Assembly: GCA_024275415.1 (NCBI GenBank)
Contig: JAJRZD010000076.1
Coordinates: forward strand, 1 to 18,729
DNA from: an archaeon
GTDB taxonomy: Archaea; Asgardarchaeota; Thorarchaeia; Thorarchaeales; Thorarchaeaceae
Direction of reading: 5' to 3'
DNA length: 18,729 nucleotides
Made by a program: the position numbers and the translations under genes. Positions 908 through 10,337 of the stretch are shown here, one piece after another. Below the pieces are notes generated by a model. The model was given only the letters and a program-made list of their open reading frames with translations, made no database searches and had not been told where the DNA came from. Each line of letters begins with the position of its first letter. The stretch's first letter is position 1.

Positions 908-1288
908 CTAGCTGTCGTCCTTCTTCTGTCGTTTCTCGTAATCCTCAATCGCCTTGTGAAGTGCGTCTGCTGCAAGGTTAGAGCAGTGCATCTTCTGAGG
1001 GGGCAGACCGTCCAATTCCTCGGCGACCTGTCCGCGAGTCAGCTTCTTTGCTTCCTCGATGGTCATTCCTATCGCCATCTCAGTGGTCACTGATGATGTG
1101 GCTATCGCCGCGACACATCCAAAGGTTTCCACCTTCGCATCCACTATCACGCCGTCTTTCACTTTTACAAAGAGTCTGAGCATGTCACCACACACGGGGT
1201 TTCCCACTTCGCCGACGCCATCGGGGTCTTCCATGCGGCCCATGTTCTTCGGGTTCGTGAAATGCTCACGGACTTTCTCTGAGTACAC
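908..1288 (-). CDS. iscU: Fe-S cluster scaffold protein IscU/NifU-N
   Basis: MYSEKVREHF start, GNPVCGD (C33, D35), FGC (C58) and LPPQKMHC (H101, C102). GTG start preceded by an AAGGTGA ribosome-binding site. Confidence 0.97.
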   Translation of the reverse strand: MYSEKVREHFTNPKNMGRMEDPDGVGEVGNPVCGDMLRLFVKVKDGVIVDAKVETFGCVAAIATSSVTTEMAIGMTIEEAKKLTRGQVAEELDGLPPQKMHCSNLAADALHKAIEDYEKRQKKDDS

Positions 1289-1349
1289 TACAAATTCACC
1301 TTCTTGTTGGTTACGTTATCACCATGCTTTAGTGTTTTTCTTAGTGGCA

Positions 1350-2564
1350 TCACCAATCATCTCCAGGGACATCATGGTGATGGTCGTCTTCAGGCTCCGT
1401 GTTAGCGAAATACTGTCCGTGTCTGATCGGGCTGAATTCTCGGAGTCGTTCCACTGCTGGGACAAGGGCATCGATGAACCCGTCAATTTCCTCTTTGGTA
1501 TTGTTCCTTGAGAACGATATCCGCAACGAGCCATGAGATACCTCAGGTGGTAGTCCGATTGCCTTCAAGACATGGCTCCCCTGAAGCGTCTTTGAGGAGC
1601 ACGCGGAGCCTGTTGCTACCGAGTATCCGAACATGTCGAGCTGGACGAGCATACTTTCGCCCTCGATGAACTCGACAAGCATGCTGAAAAGACCAGGTAT
1701 CCGATTCGTGGGATGACCTGTGAACCGGATGTCACTGATTCTTTCGGAGACCTTCTCCTTGACATACGCAGCGAGCTCGTTCAGGTGTTTAACATCATTG
1801 GGGTTCCAGATCTCGACTGCCTTGGCAAACCCGACAATGGCAGGGATGTTCTCGACTCCGGGGCGGAGCCTTCGTTCTTCATCGCCTCCCTCGTGGAGTC
1901 TGTCGATTCTCGTCCCCCTGCGGATGTACAGCGCACCCGCGCCCTTGGGGCCATGTATCAGATGGGCATCGACAGTGATGAGATCCACCATGACCTTCTC
2001 AGTATCGATAGGCATCTTCATGAAAGTCTGTGTGGCGTCCGTGTGGAACAACACGCCGGCGGCCTTGGTGATTTTGGCTATCTCCTCGATGGGCTGGACA
2101 GTCCCAATCTCACCGTTTCCATGTTGGATAGTAACGAGGACTGTATCTTCCTTTATGGCACTCTTCAGTTGTTCCAGACTTATCAGGCCGTACTCGTCAA
2201 CATCAAGATACTCGATCTCGTACCCAGCCCCTTCGAGGCGAGCCAGTGACCTGAGTACTGACTGCACTTCGATTGGCGATGTGATGATGTGTCTTCCTTT
2301 CTTCTTGTTGGCTCTCGCAACACCACGAGTTGCTAGGTTATTTGATTCGGTCGCACCAGATGTGAAGATGATAGCTCGGGGATCGGTATTGAGAGACTCC
2401 GCAATGGTCTTTCGAGCATTCTCCATCCCCATCACTGCTCCTACATCCTGTGAGTGACTCAGTTCCAGTCCTGCCGTCCCGTAATGCTCACGGAAGTACG
2501 GAAGCATTGCCTCTATGACCCTTTCATCCACTTGAGTAGAGTTAGCGTTGTCAAAGTATGCCAT
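1350..2564 (-). CDS. iscS: IscS/NifS-family (class V aminotransferase fold) protein with degenerate PLP site; probably not an active cysteine desulfurase
   Basis: Family motifs YFDNANST, IIFTSGATESNN, FHTDATQ, HGPKG, GSACSS (C322), SHVLKAIG and GSLRISF, adjacent to iscU. The Schiff-base Lys position is Leu202 and the stacking His position is Val100. Confidence 0.93.
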   Translation of the reverse strand: MAYFDNANSTQVDERVIEAMLPYFREHYGTAGLELSHSQDVGAVMGMENARKTIAESLNTDPRAIIFTSGATESNNLATRGVARANKKKGRHIITSPIEVQSVLRSLARLEGAGYEIEYLDVDEYGLISLEQLKSAIKEDTVLVTIQHGNGEIGTVQPIEEIAKITKAAGVLFHTDATQTFMKMPIDTEKVMVDLITVDAHLIHGPKGAGALYIRRGTRIDRLHEGGDEERRLRPGVENIPAIVGFAKAVEIWNPNDVKHLNELAAYVKEKVSERISDIRFTGHPTNRIPGLFSMLVEFIEGESMLVQLDMFGYSVATGSACSSKTLQGSHVLKAIGLPPEVSHGSLRISFSRNNTKEEIDGFIDALVPAVERLREFSPIRHGQYFANTEPEDDHHHDVPGDDW

Positions 2565-2570
2565 ACCACA

Positions 2571-3029
2571 TCAGTCCTTACAAGCAGAGCATTCAGTGTC
2601 TACATGGGCGCAGTATTCCTTGTGGACATCACAAAGAGTACCTTCCCTGCGGAGTATCTCGATCAACTTGTTGATTTCCCGAGTCATTGTTTCATAAACA
2701 TAATTACCCTCATCTCGGGCATCCCATGCGTCGATGATAACGTCTGCTGACTTCCTGACAGCAGGGATGACCTTTGCTGGGATCTCGACTTGGTCTCCTC
2801 GTGACCGCTTGGACTTGCTTAACTTGTATTGTGTGACGGCTGGTTCCGTGACACCTAGCATCTGAGCAATCTGCTTCTGGGGAATTCCTTTCTCAATCAT
2901 GGTTCTTGTCAGCTCACGCCGTATTGCAGGAAGTACGTACCAGACTTCTACCTCCTGTGGCATGAGCCAGGTTCTTCGTTTCTTCCTCTTTTCAGTCGGG
3001 TTACTTGCCAAAATCAATGCCTCGGTCAC
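2571..3029 (-). CDS. Archaeal HTH transcriptional regulator (COG2522-like) with C-terminal Cys/His metal-binding tail
   Basis: MPQEVEVWYVLPAIRRELTR, HTH region GIPQKQIAQMLGVTEPAVTQY and tail CDVHKEYCAHVDTECSAC. Its stop lies 6 nt before the iscS start. Alternative ATG start at 2963. Confidence 0.85.
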   Translation of the reverse strand: MTEALILASNPTEKRKKRRTWLMPQEVEVWYVLPAIRRELTRTMIEKGIPQKQIAQMLGVTEPAVTQYKLSKSKRSRGDQVEIPAKVIPAVRKSADVIIDAWDARDEGNYVYETMTREINKLIEILRREGTLCDVHKEYCAHVDTECSACKD

Positions 3030-3067
3030 TTTACTATGGTTTACGGTTCATGATAGTTAAGGTGGCA

Positions 3068-3095
3068 ATATAAGGATGTCGGCACGACATTATAT
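3068..3095. promoter_or_regulatory. Inverted repeat ATGTCG-gca-CGACAT flanked by TATA-like elements in the divergent HTH/iscSU - DUF116 intergenic region
   Basis: 6-bp arms at 3076-3081 and 3085-3090, with TATAA (3069-3073) and TTATAT (3090-3095) on either side. Confidence 0.45.
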
Positions 3096-3254
3096 CAGTA
3101 ATACACATCAAGAGACCATTTCACATTGTGAACTCCAATCAAAGCGAAAAGCTCGATTTCATACCCAAAACAACGAACATCTTAAATCACTCTAAACATA
3201 ACCTTATATTTGCACCTCCCCAAAGCTAATTGTTATCCAAGCTGGTGGCCACTA

Positions 3255-3851
3255 ATGTCCAAACACGACAGTACCAATGAAGAGAGCGCCGGTCAAAGCA
3301 AGAATGTAACGTTGGACGACATTACTGGTTTGCTGAACGAAATCGCACTTCAAAAACATGTTGCGCAAGACGAGCTTGCAAAAATGGTTATAGCCGAACT
3401 GGAAATCCATGATGAAACTCTTCTGAACTTTGCCTATATCGAGGCGGAGAATGTCCTGAATAGCGCGTCGTATTCGAGTATAGCTGTTGAAGACAGGATT
3501 CTGCTCATCCCTCATTGCCTACGGGATCGTGAACACTGCATCGCCCCTGTGGACGAAGAGGGATATCATTGCCAGAAGTGTGGCAGATGCATAATCAATG
3601 ATATCACCTTGAAAGCGGAAGCAAAAGGCATCAAGTGGTACATGGTAGGCGGAGGGTCTCATGCAATGCGAATTGTGAAGAATGCAAGGCCACGAGCTGT
3701 TCTTGGGATTGCTTGTTTCGATGATGCAAAAGCTGCGACTGAGAAGATAGGAGCGTATGGTATTCCCACACAATCAGTCCTGTTATCGAAAGACGGATGT
3801 GTGGATACCGAGGTTGATTTTGAAAGAGTGTCACGAGTAATGGATCTCTGA
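3255..3851 (+). CDS. DUF116-family Cys-rich protein, putative Fe-S binding
   Basis: RILLIPHCLR, HCQKCGRC, VGGGS, VLGIAC and DGCVDT motifs are typical of DUF116. The ATG at 3255 follows GGTGG; the ORF track starts at 3210. Confidence 0.88.
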   Translation: MSKHDSTNEESAGQSKNVTLDDITGLLNEIALQKHVAQDELAKMVIAELEIHDETLLNFAYIEAENVLNSASYSSIAVEDRILLIPHCLRDREHCIAPVDEEGYHCQKCGRCIINDITLKAEAKGIKWYMVGGGSHAMRIVKNARPRAVLGIACFDDAKAATEKIGAYGIPTQSVLLSKDGCVDTEVDFERVSRVMDL

Positions 3852-3929
3852 CAAAGTTTCACTCCAAATACTAATTGACGCTCAAATGATTCAAAGACAT
3901 CACTAACGAACAGACGCCAAAGTATGCTG

Positions 3930-6176
3930 TCAAGCCTTGTGAAATCGGATTTCGAAAACGGCACCTTTCGAATAGTCACCTGGGATCCGATCCCTCATCG
4001 TGATTGAACCACCGTATCGTTCAACAAGGCTTTTGACAACGGACAGTCCAAGTCCGGTTCCCCTTGCGCCATCCATGTACCTTGAAAAGAGATGTGCCCG
4101 TTTCTCGGGGGGAATCCCTGAGCCATGGTCGCTGATACTGACCACCCAATATCTATGCTTGGAGTCATCCTCTGAAGTGATCTTCACTTCAATTGTTTCG
4201 TTTTCAGGACTGTGCTGGATTGCATTTAGGAGTAGGTTTGTGAAGATATCGTTTATGAAATGATCTGCAAGCACATAGTACGTCCCTTCTTCATAATCGA
4301 TGACAAGCCGCATGCTCTTGGCATCACCTTTGCAGATTAGCGCAAACGAATCCTTGATGTGTTTCACAACATCATATCTGATAAGGTTGACAGTGCTTTC
4401 ATAGCCTATTCGGAGGATACGTTCCACATTATTGATTAACGACCCAGCCCTGTGTAGTGCTTCACGAATGACGCTGAGATGCTTCTTTATGGGCCGGGTT
4501 GTAGCATCATCCAATTCAAGAATGTCGATTGTTGTGATTGCTTGTTGATGATAGTTCCGGATATCATGGACGAGAAGGTCAGAGAAGACAGTTGCTCTTT
4601 TCCGTGCCTGCTCCGCTGCGAACATCCACTGTAGATATGCTATGCCAATCAGGAGTGGCCCCAATGATAGGCCCACAACACGGATAAGATGTGCCACCCA
4701 CCAGCCTACGGTCCAAATGCCATACACCGAGATGAGAATGTTTGGCACAATCCAGACTGAGAGAACCATGATGGATATTATTTCTATTCGGAGCTCTGCG
4801 ATAGATATGCGGGAGCGAAGGAAGAAGATGTAGGAAAAGAGAAGGATCACGAATATATTCAGAACTAACAGGATTGCATTCTTTTCAATATTCGAGAACA
4901 AATCTTGAATTGTTTGTACGGCTGTCGCATTGATGACCAGCACCATAAGCAATGCGAAAATGGCTGCGCCGACAATCCGGGAGATAGTGGGAGCGTATTT
5001 CAAGTCAGGCTTCTTCAACGTCCAGGCAATGGCTAACATGAAGAATATGGCTGTGAGTACGCTCCCAATGATATCACCTATCAAGGTGATATTAAGGTCT
5101 GATTCAAGTGCCGGTAACTCAAAGATTACTGTGTTGATATCAATGATGGCCCAGTTCAGAAAAATAAGAACAAGAGGAGTATGAATAGGGTCTGGTTCCC
5201 TTTTTGAAAATGCGAGGATTAGAATGATCATCTGCACTGCAATGAACAGGCCCATATACTTCGAAACTGCATAAAGGTTCAAGTCCAATACTGTCAGTCC
5301 AAAGGTCACAATCTCCAATAGCATGGTTGTGAAAAAAGGAAGGATAGTCAATGCCATCAATGCAATGACATACGCGAACGATAGTCGTTTTGATGCGCCA
5401 TAGCCTTTGAGAATGAAGAACGTGAGAACTGTAAAGAGGAGTGCCAATCCAAACAATTGGAGGTGTATGGAAACTACCCAGAAGCTAGAGAAATGGTAGA
5501 CTGAGAGAATGAGAGGGATGGAAGACAATGCAAAGACTGCGATAGTCGAAGCACAAAAACCCATAGGTACATCCTCAAGAAGAGCGGCAGATCCAGTCGC
5601 TTTTCGTACTAATAGAAAGGAACCGCCAACGATTCCAAGTATCCCAATCAGATCAACGGCCAGTAACTCAACCACTGTCAATAATGGGAGGATGCTATAA
5701 GAAAACAAGAAGACTATGAGAACGCCTCCCAGAAGCATAGATGCACGAAAGTAGCGCCACTTGAACAATGTGTACAATCTAGAACCTTCGTGCATATTCA
5801 GTGCAATGACCAAGAATAGGATGAATAACAGCGTCGTGATAATATCGCCTGAGTGAACTACAGAGTCGATTGAAGGAGGACTGTGTGCTGTCAGTCCATA
5901 ATATGCCTTACCGATATAGATGAGGCTCAAGAATAAGAAGGGTATGTGGACTGGATATTGCCATCCTGCATTGTGACCTCTTCGTACGACAAGAATGGCT
6001 CCAACAAGCATCAGTGACAGGATTGCCATCTGGGTATCGAGTACAACATGGATGTGAGAGGAATGCACATCTAAAATAGCAACGTAATATAGCAACCAGC
6101 TGAAAGTAGCTATAGTTAACACTATGATGGCGGAATATATTATCGTGTGCATCCCATTCATCCGTCTTAGCATCAC
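3930..6176 (-). CDS. Multi-pass membrane sensor histidine kinase (~16 TM + HisKA + HATPase_c)
   Basis: H-box DLLVHDIRN (H537), N-box FTNLLLNAIQHS, G1 ISDHGSGIP, F-box LFSRY and G2 GTGLGL, preceded by ~515 hydrophobic residues. Confidence 0.93.
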   Translation of the reverse strand: MMLRRMNGMHTIIYSAIIVLTIATFSWLLYYVAILDVHSSHIHVVLDTQMAILSLMLVGAILVVRRGHNAGWQYPVHIPFLFLSLIYIGKAYYGLTAHSPPSIDSVVHSGDIITTLLFILFLVIALNMHEGSRLYTLFKWRYFRASMLLGGVLIVFLFSYSILPLLTVVELLAVDLIGILGIVGGSFLLVRKATGSAALLEDVPMGFCASTIAVFALSSIPLILSVYHFSSFWVVSIHLQLFGLALLFTVLTFFILKGYGASKRLSFAYVIALMALTILPFFTTMLLEIVTFGLTVLDLNLYAVSKYMGLFIAVQMIILILAFSKREPDPIHTPLVLIFLNWAIIDINTVIFELPALESDLNITLIGDIIGSVLTAIFFMLAIAWTLKKPDLKYAPTISRIVGAAIFALLMVLVINATAVQTIQDLFSNIEKNAILLVLNIFVILLFSYIFFLRSRISIAELRIEIISIMVLSVWIVPNILISVYGIWTVGWWVAHLIRVVGLSLGPLLIGIAYLQWMFAAEQARKRATVFSDLLVHDIRNYHQQAITTIDILELDDATTRPIKKHLSVIREALHRAGSLINNVERILRIGYESTVNLIRYDVVKHIKDSFALICKGDAKSMRLVIDYEEGTYYVLADHFINDIFTNLLLNAIQHSPENETIEVKITSEDDSKHRYWVVSISDHGSGIPPEKRAHLFSRYMDGARGTGLGLSVVKSLVERYGGSITMRDRIPGDYSKGAVFEIRFHKA

Positions 6177-6609
6177 AGAGTGAGAGATAGTCCCAATAGA
6201 AAAATGTTTTTTTTACTTTCATCTCATTTTCCCCTTATAAAGGTAAATTCTGCAATGCGCAATTGGACAAAACAGATTGATACTGCGAACACTCAAACAT
6301 TCAGGTCAGGATCCCAGTGGGTTGCAAATAGCTGCGTTAGATGTGCCCAAACGTGGACATCCCTTAGATAGACATTCGAAGTAAATTATAGGGCTTCATA
6401 TACTCGACCACTCTCACAGGAGTATGAGGTCGGACATGACACACAAATGGCCTCGCAGAGTCCACCTAGTGCCGTTATCTGGGAGTGCAACACTCTGGTG
6501 TCCAAGTTTGTACAACTTACAATAAACGGTGACGATCGACAATACAAATGATAGCATCGTCTTAAAGCTGCTCATTCGTATTGGAGTCCACTTTCAAGGA
6601 TCATGCAAT

Positions 6610-6864
6610 CTAGACGAATTCTAAGATGACTGTCCTTTCATGGCTAGAAAGAGTGCTTCTAGTAAGGTCTTCTCCAGTCGAAGAAACAACTCTCCATTTC
6701 TTGTGGACATCGTGATCCTCGAAGGGCCATGATTGACGAACAGCTTCCTCGAATGTTGTATCATCATGTCCTTTTATGAAATACTCCCTCTTCGAGTCTT
6801 TCAGCCTAATTACTCGTGTTACATTTCCTGCGAATCCTTTCAGACTGCCTCTTCTCATATACAT
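6610..6864 (-). CDS. Small hypothetical protein, possible beta-grasp/ubiquitin-like fold without C-terminal GG
   Basis: An 84-aa ORF fills the gap upstream of, and divergent from, the sirtuin. Its strand/helix pattern and TLSSH / ERTVILEF segments resemble ubiquitin TLSDY / ESTLHLV. Confidence 0.6.
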   Translation of the reverse strand: MYMRRGSLKGFAGNVTRVIRLKDSKREYFIKGHDDTTFEEAVRQSWPFEDHDVHKKWRVVSSTGEDLTRSTLSSHERTVILEFV

Positions 6865-7034
6865 CCCATCTATTCAGAAACGAACCTTCAGGTTAAGAGG
6901 CCCGGTTCATCATATATTCGTGTGCAGACAATCTGTAATAGGTCTTTACATCTGCACCGGACACAATGTCCACAATTATGATGGTGGTACACACAATTCG
7001 ATTTGTTGATAAGAAGCCAGTACTATTCTTGGGT

Positions 7035-7772
7035 ATGGTGACTCCCATTCGTGCCCTCAAGGCTGCTGCTGCTGTCATCAGTGAGTCCACATATATGGTC
7101 GCTCTTACCGGAGCTGGGATCAGCAGGGAATCAAACGTGCCAACATTCAGGGGTACTGATGGACTGTGGCGTAACTACGACCCCATGGAGCTAGCGACAC
7201 CTCAAGCATTCGAGCGAGACCCAATGCTTGTCTGGGAATGGTACTCGTGGCGTCAGGGACTGATTCTTGAGTGCGAACCTAACCCTGCTCATCATATCTT
7301 GGCAAAATGGGAAAAGGAAGATATCTTAGGACATATCATAACCCAGAATGTGGACGACCTTCATCGTCGAGCAGGCTCAAAGGGCATTACGAAACTGCAT
7401 GGGGACATATTCAAGGTGAAATGCACGAGATGCACATACCGAGCGATTATTCCAGCTCCCCCTAATGGTGTACCAACATGCCCTGATTGTGAGTCATTAC
7501 TACGTCCTGATGTCGTGTGGTTTGGAGAGAGCCTTGACCAGCAGGTGATGGATGATGTACGTGACGAACTGAACCAGTCTGATGTTATCATCGTCATAGG
7601 GACTTCTGGTATCGTTCAGCCTGCGGCATCATTCCCTCTCATCGTAAAGAGATGGGGTGAGGTGGTCGAGGTGAATCCCGAAGAAACACCCATAACAGTC
7701 ATCGCAGATGTTCATGTCGCTGGAAAGGCGGGGGAAGCATTGCCCCAGATCGATCAGTTAATCCAAAGATAG
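7035..7772 (+). CDS. cobB: NAD+-dependent protein deacylase, Sir2/CobB family (class III)
   Basis: LTGAGISRESNVPTFRG, TQNVDDLH, LHG, Zn motifs CTRC/CPDC, RPDVVWFGE, GTSGIVQPAA and VNPE. Start refined to the ATG at 7035; the ORF track starts at 6966. Confidence 0.96.
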   Translation: MVTPIRALKAAAAVISESTYMVALTGAGISRESNVPTFRGTDGLWRNYDPMELATPQAFERDPMLVWEWYSWRQGLILECEPNPAHHILAKWEKEDILGHIITQNVDDLHRRAGSKGITKLHGDIFKVKCTRCTYRAIIPAPPNGVPTCPDCESLLRPDVVWFGESLDQQVMDDVRDELNQSDVIIVIGTSGIVQPAASFPLIVKRWGEVVEVNPEETPITVIADVHVAGKAGEALPQIDQLIQR

Positions 7773-8957
7773 CTTCGTTCCCGTCCTGTGTGCGATGCTC
7801 CTAGCACGGTTCCTCAACTGTTGCCCTTCCTGCACCCGCCCGATAGCAATCAACGAAAAACCAAGTTGATCCCACGCAGGGGCATAGTCTGGATCCGTCG
7901 AGATTGCCTTCCTGAATGCAATCTCCGCGCCGGCATGGTCACCTTGTTTTCGTAATGCCATGCCCAAATATGTGATGAGATAAGGATCCTCGTTTCGGAT
8001 ATGCAACGCCCTCTGGAACATCTCTTGTGCGTGCCCATACACTCCTTGCTTGAACAAAGAAACGCCTAGCTTCACCCAAGCATCGATGCAGCTGGGCTCT
8101 GTGACCGTGACCTTGCGTAGCCACCTGCTCGCCTTTTCATACTCGCCCATTTTCAAATAGCAGGAGCCCAGCAGGTAGGACGCCCGTACATTGTCCATAT
8201 CGGACGCGATGACCCGATTGAGGGGATCCAAGGCTCGCGTGTGCATATCCTGTTGGTAGAGAACCTCGCCTAACAGAACCAGTGCCTCAATGTTGTCGTT
8301 GTCATCATGCAATGCATTTTGTATCACTCGCTCAGCGTCCAAGAACTTCCCTTCTCTTATCAGCGCCGTAGCAAACAAGAACCATGCCTGTTGCTCTCCG
8401 GTGCTGTTCTCCCCGCTAGGATGTCCGATATATCCCTCACGAGCTGATGTGGTAGGGGAACCTCTGACCTGCTGAGAACCAGAAACCATCCACTGTTCGT
8501 GTTTGAATGGAGCACCAGATTCAATAGGGCTTCCTGAGTCTGCCTCATCCCTGACACTCGTCGTTTCCTCATCTTCAACAACGTCACTCGGCGGTGATAG
8601 CCCTCTACTGGGTTCAGCAGCAGAAATGGATGGCTTGCTCCGTTCGACATATTCCTCTCTGAGCTGGCTTCGAAGACGCGCCCATGTCAACGACTTCCCG
8701 CCCTTGTGCTTCAGGAGTTCCTTACCTATTTTCTCAGCATCGGTTTCCCTACGCTGTTCAAGAAGGAGTACGCAGAGTTCTGTCAATGCTTCGACTAATC
8801 TTGGGTTCTTCCTAAGAACCAGACGATAGTAGTTCTCCGCACTTCGTACATTGCCCTCCTTCCTTCGTTCCCGAGCCGCTTCCAATAATTCCAGCCACTC
8901 CGTGTTAGGTGCCCCGTTGCCTGACTCCTCGAAACTGGTTCCGCCATCCGATGGCAA
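7758..8957 (-). CDS. Tetratricopeptide-repeat protein
   Basis: N-terminal TPR-like hairpin (AENYYRLVLRKNPRLVEALTELC), a low-complexity linker, then ~6 TPR units (e.g. AWVKLGVSLFKQGVYGHAQEMFQRAL, AFRKAISTDPDYAPAWDQLG). TTG start. Confidence 0.9.
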   Translation of the reverse strand: MPSDGGTSFEESGNGAPNTEWLELLEAARERRKEGNVRSAENYYRLVLRKNPRLVEALTELCVLLLEQRRETDAEKIGKELLKHKGGKSLTWARLRSQLREEYVERSKPSISAAEPSRGLSPPSDVVEDEETTSVRDEADSGSPIESGAPFKHEQWMVSGSQQVRGSPTTSAREGYIGHPSGENSTGEQQAWFLFATALIREGKFLDAERVIQNALHDDNDNIEALVLLGEVLYQQDMHTRALDPLNRVIASDMDNVRASYLLGSCYLKMGEYEKASRWLRKVTVTEPSCIDAWVKLGVSLFKQGVYGHAQEMFQRALHIRNEDPYLITYLGMALRKQGDHAGAEIAFRKAISTDPDYAPAWDQLGFSLIAIGRVQEGQQLRNRARSIAHRTGTKLSLD

Positions 8958-9302: not shown

Positions 9303-10337
9303 ATGGTAGTTAGCACCGCTCATTCTCAAAGGTGGCATGGCTTGAAGATTCTGTTAACAGGAGCGACTGGGTTCATCGGGCGGAAGCTGGCTAAAAGGTT
9401 GGTCGACGAAGGCAATGATCTTTATGCTCTCATCCGTTCGACGAGCAATACGGCGGGACTTCCCGAAGCGGTTGAGTTCAGAGAGGCGGATCTCCTCACC
9501 TACGAGGGCCTTGAGAGGGTCGTAGAAGACATTCAAGTGGTCATCCATCTGGCAGCATACTTCGACTTCTATCCATCAGATGTGGATCTCCTGTACAGAG
9601 TGAATGTAGAAGGGACGAGGAATCTCATGAATGCCTGCGTTGGGACAAGTGTAGAGAGGTTCATCTATTGTTCGACAACGGAGGTCATCGGCCCCGTCAG
9701 ATACCCACCTGGGAACGAAGATACGGAACTGCGCCCACAGTTCGACTACTCGAAAAGCAAAGCGATGGCAGAGGATATTGTTCGAGAGATCACGACGGAC
9801 ACTGGATTGAGCCATGTCATCTTGCGGCCAACTGGAGTTATGGGCGAAGGTGATAGTTATACTGCAATGGAGCTTGTCCAGGCTATAAACAACAGGGAGA
9901 TACCCATCCTTCCCGGAGATGGACAAAAACATATCATGTATACTCATGTGGACGATGTGGTGGATGCCTTCGTGAAAGCAGTGACATCAAAAACAGCTGT
10001 GAACGAGACCTTGATCATCTGTCCCGATGAGCCCCTCACCTACAAAGAATTGATCCAGTTCCTTGGCGAAAAGCTGGGTGTTGAACCTCCCAAAAGGCGG
10101 ATTCCCACGAGCATTGCTAAGATTGGGATTGGACTCCTGAGCCCGATAAAGAACCGCAGAAAGAACACATTCCTATGGCACGCTAAGACCATCCAGAGCA
10201 TGGACGAAGACAGGTGGTACACGAATGCCAAGGCCAAACGACTCTTGGACTGGGCTCCAAAGTACTCAATGGAGGAAGGCATCGCTCGACAGATCGAGTG
10301 GGCCTGGGAAACAAATCTATTGGAGAAACGAGTGTGA
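9303..10337 (+). CDS. NAD-dependent epimerase/dehydratase (extended SDR)
   Basis: KILLTGATGFIG Rossmann motif, VIHLAA, YCSTTEV, catalytic YSKSK (YxxxK) and ILRPTGVMG. Confidence 0.93.
   Translation: MVVSTAHSQRWHGLKILLTGATGFIGRKLAKRLVDEGNDLYALIRSTSNTAGLPEAVEFREADLLTYEGLERVVEDIQVVIHLAAYFDFYPSDVDLLYRVNVEGTRNLMNACVGTSVERFIYCSTTEVIGPVRYPPGNEDTELRPQFDYSKSKAMAEDIVREITTDTGLSHVILRPTGVMGEGDSYTAMELVQAINNREIPILPGDGQKHIMYTHVDDVVDAFVKAVTSKTAVNETLIICPDEPLTYKELIQFLGEKLGVEPPKRRIPTSIAKIGIGLLSPIKNRRKNTFLWHAKTIQSMDEDRWYTNAKAKRLLDWAPKYSMEEGIARQIEWAWETNLLEKRV

Follow-up and report, generated by a model that had tools for sequence, protein, structure and literature searches.

A lysine-less IscS and its IscU scaffold behind a candidate autoregulated repressor of an uncharacterised archaeal family in Thorarchaeia

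The first genes of contig JAJRZD010000076.1, from an archaeon of the family Thorarchaeaceae (Asgard archaea; assembly GCA_024275415.1), raise the question of how a cell would govern and supply an iron-sulfur (Fe-S) assembly pair whose cysteine desulfurase homologue has no catalytic lysine, and of which neighbouring genes belong with that pair. The window considered here is the whole contig (18,729 nucleotides, 18.7 kb; C56), which comes from a 3.5-Mb genome (G000) that is 92.9% complete. A preliminary description of this window had proposed a self-contained, undescribed Fe-S module made of a helix-turn-helix (HTH) sensor, an inactive IscS and an IscU, with a divergent and cysteine-rich DUF116 gene as its possible client or accessory. 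The analysis reported here favours, with a probability of roughly 0.6, a three-gene operon, HTH-iscS1-iscU1, in which a pair of the minimal MIS type stands under a dedicated, autoregulated repressor of an uncharacterised archaeal family. The elements of this operon are as follows.

Positions 2571-3029, minus strand: HTH protein of 152 amino acids (aa), XRE-like, candidate autoregulated repressor.
Positions 1350-2564, minus strand: IscS1, 404 aa, type-I cysteine-desulfurase homologue (PF00266, 241 bits), predicted non-catalytic partner of IscU.
Positions 908-1288, minus strand: IscU1 scaffold, 126 aa (NifU_N, 157 bits; TIGR03419, 189.8 bits).
Positions 3047-3060, no strand assigned: operator site 1, TTAACTATCATGAA as read on the gene strand (12.9 bits).
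Positions 3030-3043, no strand assigned: second, weaker operator-like site immediately next to the GTG start; it reads TAAACCATAGTAAA on the gene strand and scores 7.0 bits.
Positions 3067-3075, minus strand: TATA-like box CCTTATATT of the HTH-iscS-iscU operon, matching a conserved CTTATwwr element.

The three genes are co-oriented in the order HTH, iscS1, iscU1, with gaps of 6 nt (2565-2570) and 61 nt (1289-1349), and a GGTGA Shine-Dalgarno-like motif is located 8 nt upstream of the GTG start of iscU1. This order, these gaps and the divergent position of the DUF116 gene had been read correctly in the preliminary description, whose statement that the window lacks IscR/Rrf2, HscAB, IscA and ferredoxin agrees with Pfam scans of all large open reading frames of the window, which detected none of them. 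IscU1 keeps all the cluster ligands (C33, D35, C58, H101 and C102) and an LPPVK-like motif (LPPQK, residues 95-99) of a NifU_N scaffold, as had been claimed and as can be read directly from the translation, and its TIGR03419 score exceeds the cut-off of 187.9 bits.

IscS1 shows the class-V aminotransferase fold and an IscS/NifS-like sequence, with PDB matches to 9wep (360 bits) and 4eb5 (321 bits), and its best NCBIfam match is TIGR03402 NifS, where 408 bits fall under the equivalog cut-off of 530. Among the features of a type-I desulfurase, both the fold and the mobile-loop cysteine (C322, codon 1599-1601, in the GSAC part of SGSAC) are present, and the Schiff-base lysine of the S-x-H-K motif is missing. 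In the alignment to the active desulfurase 9wep, the 'AHK' of the pyridoxal phosphate (PLP) site reads 'AHL' in IscS1, with L202 (codon 1959-1961) in place of the lysine, and the PLP-stacking histidine is replaced by V100 (codon 2265-2267). Since T72, D176 and H201 are retained, the PLP pocket is only partly eroded. The lysine is also absent from every one of the 26 Asgard orthologues whose sequence extends over this position (64-85% identical), which carry His in 18 cases, Leu in three, Arg in three and Val in two, and the loop cysteine is kept throughout. The inactive IscS of the preliminary description is therefore borne out, and these residues point to IscS1 as a conserved pseudo-enzyme, predicted to be non-catalytic, and not as a normal desulfurase.

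A quick maximum-likelihood tree (IQ-TREE) places IscS1 and a second homologue encoded in the same genome, IscS2, in separate clades, each with a support of 100, and Lys-bearing DPANN sequences fall between the two, so that the loss of the lysine in IscS1 was independent of that of the Archaeoglobus fulgidus type. Alignments and tree together show the loss of the PLP lysine of IscS on at least two occasions, followed by its maintained absence under selection. The possibility that IscS1 is itself the orthologue of A. fulgidus IscS was considered and rejected, given its DAHLIHGPKG motif and its separate clade; the orthologue is IscS2.

The HTH gene accompanies this pseudo-enzyme with high fidelity, directly preceding 21 of the 21 IscS1 orthologues found in a survey of 61 genomes of the same order. 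In a second sample, composed of 80 HTH-homologue loci of other species, with neighbours scored within 8 kb, an IscS-like gene follows the HTH gene in 32 cases (31 directly and one 0.8 kb further on). The association reaches a distant group of small-genome archaea, a class taken here as DPANN, since its members include records with the labels Woesearchaeota and Nanoarchaeota: 143 of 201 genomes of this class encode an HTH homologue, and 16 of 30 sampled loci show HTH followed by IscS, with IscU detected downstream in 11. The IscS proteins of these DPANN loci bear the lysine, which indicates that the HTH protein goes with iscSU of whatever kind, and that the dead form is not what it is tied to. 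The neighbourhood conservation that the preliminary description had proposed as a check is found, in consequence, for the unit of three co-oriented genes.

As for the HTH protein itself, 340 homologues were found, all of them unnamed or called 'transcriptional regulator', and only a minority carry the HTH_3 domain (PF01381). No curated family for it was present in Pfam or NCBIfam, neither of which gave any match to the Rrf2 winged-helix domain; matches in the ESM Atlas were restricted to unnamed archaeal HTH_3 clusters. A sequence search of the PDB gave short HTH matches only, and a wide VIA-align search with the predicted structure returned unrelated helical proteins, with Z below 6 throughout. 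The AlphaFold model, a confident one (predicted local distance difference test, pLDDT, of 85), has an HTH (residues 51-69), two long helices and a C-terminal knuckle. The C-terminal tail of the protein has the pattern C133-x2-H136-x10-C147-x2-C150 (codons 2580-2633), whose four residues are invariant in 20 Asgard sequences and whose Cys/His motif recurs in 27 of 34 DPANN homologues. With this tail and the operator described next, the protein is a candidate autoregulated Fe-S, redox or iron repressor of an uncharacterised archaeal family.

The candidate operator of such a repressor is a 14-bp palindrome, TTmACwATwGTkAA, which in Asgard and DPANN genomes lies upstream of the HTH gene, just downstream of a TATA-like box. 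Its position is shared by the majority of 77 related loci, 34 of which have it as a perfect TTCAC-N4-GTGAA, and the DPANN version, TTAAC-N4-GTTAA, is seen in 28 of 34 HTH loci. A CTTATwwr TATA-like element stands 10-27 nt upstream of the palindrome in related loci, and many relatives carry tandem second sites, for instance TTCACTATTGTGAA-T-GAAACAATAGTGAA. In our case, operator site 1 is the best position-weight-matrix site in the whole window, with the TATA-like box on one side of it and the start codon on the other. This box is contained in one arm of a 16-nt inverted repeat (3060-3075 and 3202-3217; AGGTGGCAATATAAGG and CCTTATATTTGCACCT), by which the HTH operon and the DUF116 gene share nearly the same TATA-like 16-mer in opposite orientations. 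Midway between the two divergent genes there is also a 13-bp perfect dyad, TTCACATTGTGAA (3120-3132), built of operator half-sites; it was rejected as an operator because its spacer has 3 nt, where the operator has 4, and because of its wrong position.

The mechanism that we propose would start with the binding of an HTH dimer to the palindrome, downstream of the TATA box and ahead of the point where transcription begins, which would block initiation, so that the protein would repress its own operon as well as the other genes preceded by the palindrome. The C-x2-H...C-x2-C site would hold either an Fe-S cluster, a metal or a redox-sensitive zinc/thiol centre that sets DNA binding, and through it Fe-S cluster availability, iron or oxidation would be sensed and repression relieved. 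Acting in this way, the HTH protein could tie the assembly of Fe-S clusters to the storage of iron and to the defence against peroxide, much as IscR, PerR or OxyR do, while belonging to none of those families.

Those other genes were sought with an operator weight matrix built from 55 sites, which gives only 24 matches scoring 14 bits or more across the 3.5 Mb of the genome. Its top intergenic matches lie just upstream of two tandem AhpC/TSA peroxiredoxins (C1:52493), a ferritin (C30:3603), a cluster encoding TusA, DsrE, IscS2 and IscU2, a universal stress protein (Usp), a TFB paralogue and an M3 peptidase. In about 30 Thorarchaeia genomes that span many genera, a site scoring 10 bits or more is found at a fixed distance before the peroxiredoxins in 30 of 30, before the ferritin in 27 of 30 and before the TusA cluster in 27 of 30, against a background of 4.5% for random 160-nt windows and of 1.1% (8 of 753) for promoter-like regions. 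Exact palindromes number 4 and 15 in two single-contig relatives, whereas the reversed control gives 0 and 1; almost every one of them is close to a promoter, and redox genes often follow, among them TusA-DsrE-IscS2, peroxiredoxin, disulfide oxidoreductase and other redox enzymes. The operator-like site of the TFB (TFIIB) paralogue, TTCACAATTATTAA, scores 16.5 bits and is located 38 nt upstream of the gene (C111:1682, locus L130), which suggests that a stress-specific initiation factor is part of the same regulon.

A regulon of this composition could also be expected of a peroxide, thiol-redox or iron sensor in the manner of PerR, OxyR or Fur, one whose C-x2-H...C-x2-C site binds zinc or iron, which is released from DNA by oxidation or metal loss, and for which iscSU would be a single target amid stress genes. 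The best-conserved targets, peroxiredoxins and ferritin, are typical members of PerR, OxyR and Fur regulons; other sites are found upstream of Usp and of oxidoreductases that include a pyridine-nucleotide disulfide oxidoreductase, and over half of the HTH genes are not adjacent to iscS. On the other hand, the ligand set of the HTH protein consists of three cysteines and one histidine, as in IscR, its gene stands beside iscSU again and again in two phyla far apart from each other, and the operator is present at each of the two Fe-S gene clusters in the genome. A sensor of this second type, in place of an Fe-S cluster sensor, appears unlikely, although it deserves serious consideration.

The second of these gene clusters, in the order TusA, DsrE-like, IscS2 and IscU2, is split over two contig ends (C79:2063-3705 and C86:1-1091; loci L126 and L131). 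Its operator, TTAACCATAGTTAA, lies 24 nt before tusA, and gene order and operator are conserved together in the 27 of 30 relatives mentioned above. IscU2 has 259 aa, with a C-terminal extension of approximately 130 aa. IscS2 is the orthologue of A. fulgidus IscS2 (4eb5, 368 bits), with which it shares an identical SSNDIYGPKG motif where aspartate replaces the lysine; 'ND' takes the place of 'HK' in 28 of 28 Thorarchaeial IscS2 orthologues, and the TusA and DsrE sulfur carriers always precede IscS2. SufB/SmsB (PF01458) was not found in the 92.9%-complete genome, and four genus-mates yielded only a 70-residue fragment in one of them, whereas all 14 control genomes have it. Since the search gave no SufB/SmsB for the genome and no full-length copy for the genus, scaffolds of the IscU type may be all that this archaeon has. 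Across the 61 genomes of the order, 27 have TusA-DsrE-IscS2 only, 21 SufB only, seven both and six neither, and one genus comprises eight genomes with IscS2 only, seven with SufB only and none with both. SufB and TusA-DsrE-IscS2 thus tend to exclude each other, which, for related and incomplete metagenome-assembled genomes (MAGs), is to be taken as a lead and not as a test.

Where the sulfur of the window's pair would come from follows in part from the residues of IscS1, since a protein without the PLP lysine has to obtain its sulfur by some means besides its own catalysis. With no lysine for the PLP aldimine, IscS1 would produce no persulfide from cysteine and would instead act as a structural partner of IscU1, its loop cysteine serving as a cluster ligand or as a sulfur-relay residue by analogy with A. 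fulgidus IscS, and the sulfur would be delivered as sulfide or by a trans-acting donor. The preliminary description had already placed the sulfur source elsewhere, and the dead IscS1 supports it in this; the candidate donors that the genome offers are a Lys-bearing SufS-type (group-II) desulfurase encoded on C10 and the TusA/DsrE proteins. A more active role, in which C322 relays a persulfide from one of these donors to IscU, or in which weak PLP chemistry takes place without the lysine, is possible but rather doubtful. The loop cysteine is invariant while the pocket is only partly eroded, and the genome provides both the TusA and DsrE that always precede IscS2 and a Lys-bearing group-II desulfurase; however, the operon of the window includes no sulfur carrier, the replacement of the lysine varies among His, Leu, Arg and Val, which argues against a new catalytic residue, and for A. 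fulgidus IscS a ligand role and no desulfurase activity are reported (PMC7585200).

Two other desulfurase homologues of the genome can be recorded in this context. One of them, on C12 (8896-10062, minus strand), is a DndA/SspA-like IscS with an intact HK motif and an in-frame TAA after the catalytic-Cys region, and adjoins a gene for a 668-aa DndD/SMC-like ATPase; the pair is probably a DNA phosphorothioation-type system, possibly decayed. The other, C43:21762-22973, is a group-II-like class-V aminotransferase homologue with an RSGLLCAHP cysteine motif that seems to lack the PLP lysine (…ASANMSFMAPPG…), and it may be a third pseudo-desulfurase.

Put together, regulon and second cluster allow a broader proposal, which we hold tentatively and at somewhat less than even odds. 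The COG2522-like HTH protein with the C-x2-H...C-x2-C tail might be a widespread archaeal Fe-S, iron or redox sensor, analogous in function to IscR/PerR though of an unrelated family, that binds TTmAC-N4-GTkAA from Asgard to DPANN and co-ordinates Fe-S assembly with ferritin and peroxiredoxin, and in those Thorarchaeia without SufB/SmsB two independently 'dead' IscS proteins, each with its IscU, might constitute the only scaffolds and receive their sulfur as sulfide or through a TusA/DsrE relay.

Several points weigh against the repressor-and-pair interpretation. The Pfam matches of the HTH protein (HTH_3, HTH_37 and HTH_23) are all below cut-off, that to HTH_3 (PF01381) with 16.4 bits against 23, and a Foldseek search of the PDB for a solved structural relative gave nothing below an E-value of 0.6. 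Its C-terminal Cys/His site could be structural zinc. In about 45 of the 80 HTH loci, nearly all labelled Thorarchaeota, an enoyl-CoA hydratase gene follows the HTH gene and no iscS is adjacent, so that the protein is not exclusively an isc regulator. One Thorarchaeial lineage (loci L034, L037, L043, L046 and L063) has HTH-IscS1 with no IscU within 8 kb downstream; there IscS1 may work with IscU2 or have another role. The genomes sampled are related, incomplete MAGs, by which the counts overstate their independence. IscS1 is not the orthologue of the A. fulgidus protein, which makes the analogy between them one of convergence, and its missing catalysis is deduced from sequence only.

The link between the HTH protein and the palindrome has the same kind of basis, and another factor could bind there, leaving the HTH gene as a mere regulon member whose product has its own function elsewhere, on a different DNA target or as a non-regulatory partner of IscS. 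Regulon members often include other regulators, and the TFB paralogue also carries a site. Nevertheless, the HTH gene is the only gene common to all the palindrome-bearing loci, in Asgard and DPANN and whatever its neighbours, a 14-bp dyad suits a dimeric HTH protein, and archaeal autorepressors typically have their sites where this one lies, after the TATA box and before the start, all of which makes a different transcription factor improbable. Autorepression by the HTH protein continues to be the better account of the palindrome, and the divergent gene on its other side remains to be placed.

Positions 3210-3851, plus strand: DUF116 gene (PF01976, 130 bits), likely start ATG 3255, judged outside the module.

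Its membership of the DUF116 family is clear, the cut-off for PF01976 being 25 bits, and the start at ATG 3255 appears likelier than the annotated TTG at 3210, as this codon falls inside the gene's own TATA-like element (3202-3217). The preliminary description had assigned DUF116 to the module as client or accessory. The divergent adjacency to the HTH gene, the shared 16-nt promoter-like element and the richness in cysteine of the protein speak in favour of such a four-gene module, and the comparative data contradict it: DUF116 is near none of the 80 HTH homologues within 8 kb and at none of the 21 IscS1 loci, and HTH, IscS or IscU are near none of 15 DUF116 loci. Its orthologues exist in only 13 of the 61 genomes of the order, with a distribution unrelated to that of IscS1. 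Of the genus-mates, G236 holds both, but its DUF116 and its HTH-IscS1 locus are on separate contigs, G257 has DUF116 and no match to IscS1, and G250 and G264 have IscS1 and no match to DUF116. No convincing operator was seen at the promoters of DUF116 orthologues, nor at that of the window gene.

The neighbourhood itself offers an explanation for the present arrangement. In most cases (58 of 80 loci) the gene divergent from HTH is Sir2, followed by a tetratricopeptide repeat (TPR) protein and an epimerase, and the window retains this order (Sir2, 6966-7772; TPR, 7758-8957; epimerase, 9303-10337; then a lactate permease) beyond an insertion of about 3.9 kb (3030-6965) between HTH and Sir2. This insertion comprises DUF116, a multi-pass membrane histidine kinase of 748 aa (3930-6176) and a small open reading frame (6610-6864). 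DUF116 arrived with the histidine kinase in it and is a chance neighbour outside the module, from which it was rejected on synteny, distribution and lack of operator; a functional tie to HTH-IscS-IscU can be regarded as very improbable. The preliminary description had tied its proposal to the synteny of both regulator and DUF116 with iscSU and to an IscS that is not a normal desulfurase, and of these the regulator is indeed syntenic with iscS, the IscS is indeed abnormal, and DUF116 fails. Elsewhere, DUF116 is found in open frames of 537-580 aa in several genera of other Thorarchaeia (L254-L257 and L259-L261), fused to another domain, and a weak paralogue of 537 aa is present on C11 of G000; the only matches to DUF116 in the literature searched were papers on DUF1162/VPS13.

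As to novelty, the preliminary claim of an undescribed system does not hold for the pair, since an IscS without the lysine together with an IscU is already a known kind, with precedents in A. fulgidus, in Methanosarcina acetivorans and in MIS. It seems to hold for the leading regulator, the cross-phylum operator and the ferritin/peroxiredoxin/Fe-S regulon, which appear to be undescribed in the literature searched. That literature, which left most subscription journals outside, contained no description of an archaeal regulator of iscSU or MIS nor of a regulon of this palindrome, and gave nothing relevant on COG2522; the reviews and papers it comprised mention no regulator of MIS or SMS, the minimal Fe-S systems of archaea, and rank MIS as the least studied among Fe-S assembly systems. 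What the locus offers is a testable candidate, a small protein with a 14-bp operator and a short list of targets (ferritin, peroxiredoxins and two IscS/IscU clusters), in a protein-operator pair conserved between Asgard archaea and DPANN. Moreover, many Thorarchaeia appear to be without SufB/SmsB, which makes it a more pressing matter how these relatives of the eukaryotic ancestor put together Fe-S clusters when they have no dedicated desulfurase for the task.

Among the known systems, the closest to the pair is that of A. fulgidus, whose IscS has Asp for Lys and no desulfurase activity and is proposed to contribute a cysteine ligand to the [2Fe-2S] cluster of IscU, with no part in sulfur supply, according to PMC7585200 and PMC13066941, which cite Marinoni 2012, Yamanaka 2013 and Pagnier 2014. 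The A. fulgidus IscS2-IscU system (4eb5/4eb7) and the pair of the window have in common a Lys-less type-I homologue, the conserved loop cysteine and an adjacent IscU. They differ at the lysine position, which is Asp in A. fulgidus and Leu in the window IscS1 (in its relatives His, Arg or Val), and in that IscS1 has lost the stacking histidine as well. Of the (IscS-IscU)2 complex with loop-Cys ligation that characterises the A. fulgidus type, what is seen here is the adjacent iscU gene and the retained cysteine. In M. acetivorans, IscS1 (MA0808) lacks the PLP-binding residues and is paired with a 24-kDa IscU1 (MA0807), and this isc1 locus is clustered with four genes of unknown function (PMC7585200). 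Compared by description, isc1 shares with the window the Lys-less IscS and the IscU, its long IscU1 resembles the 259-aa IscU2 of G000, and neither regulator nor operator is reported for it. MIS (MisS/MisU; Garcia et al. 2022) is presented in PMC13066941 and PMC12442378 as an IscS/IscU pair without additional components, in which MisS is defined as a cysteine desulfurase. The pair studied here is likewise a two-gene unit of IscS-like and IscU-like proteins in an archaeon, adjacent, conserved in relatives and with no HscAB, IscA, ferredoxin or IscR in the window; it departs from MIS in the missing lysine, which on the residues present would disqualify IscS1 as the pair's desulfurase, and in the conserved regulator gene that heads the operon.

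On the regulatory side, the likeness to IscR lies in the position as first gene of an isc operon, in the signs of autoregulation through an operator in its own promoter, in the three cysteines and one histidine available as candidate ligands, and in a regulon that includes a second Fe-S locus. IscR, however, is a bacterial protein of the Rrf2 family with a [2Fe-2S] cluster, and the fold of the HTH protein (an XRE-like HTH plus a helical domain) is unrelated to it, ligand spacing and operator are different, cluster binding is only a candidate property, and the regulon also holds ferritin and peroxiredoxins. It is through these last targets that the HTH protein, though devoid of any Fur-family or LysR-family domain, approaches PerR and OxyR, with which it would share peroxiredoxin, ferritin-like iron storage and Fe-S genes as targets and a putative Cys/His metal site.

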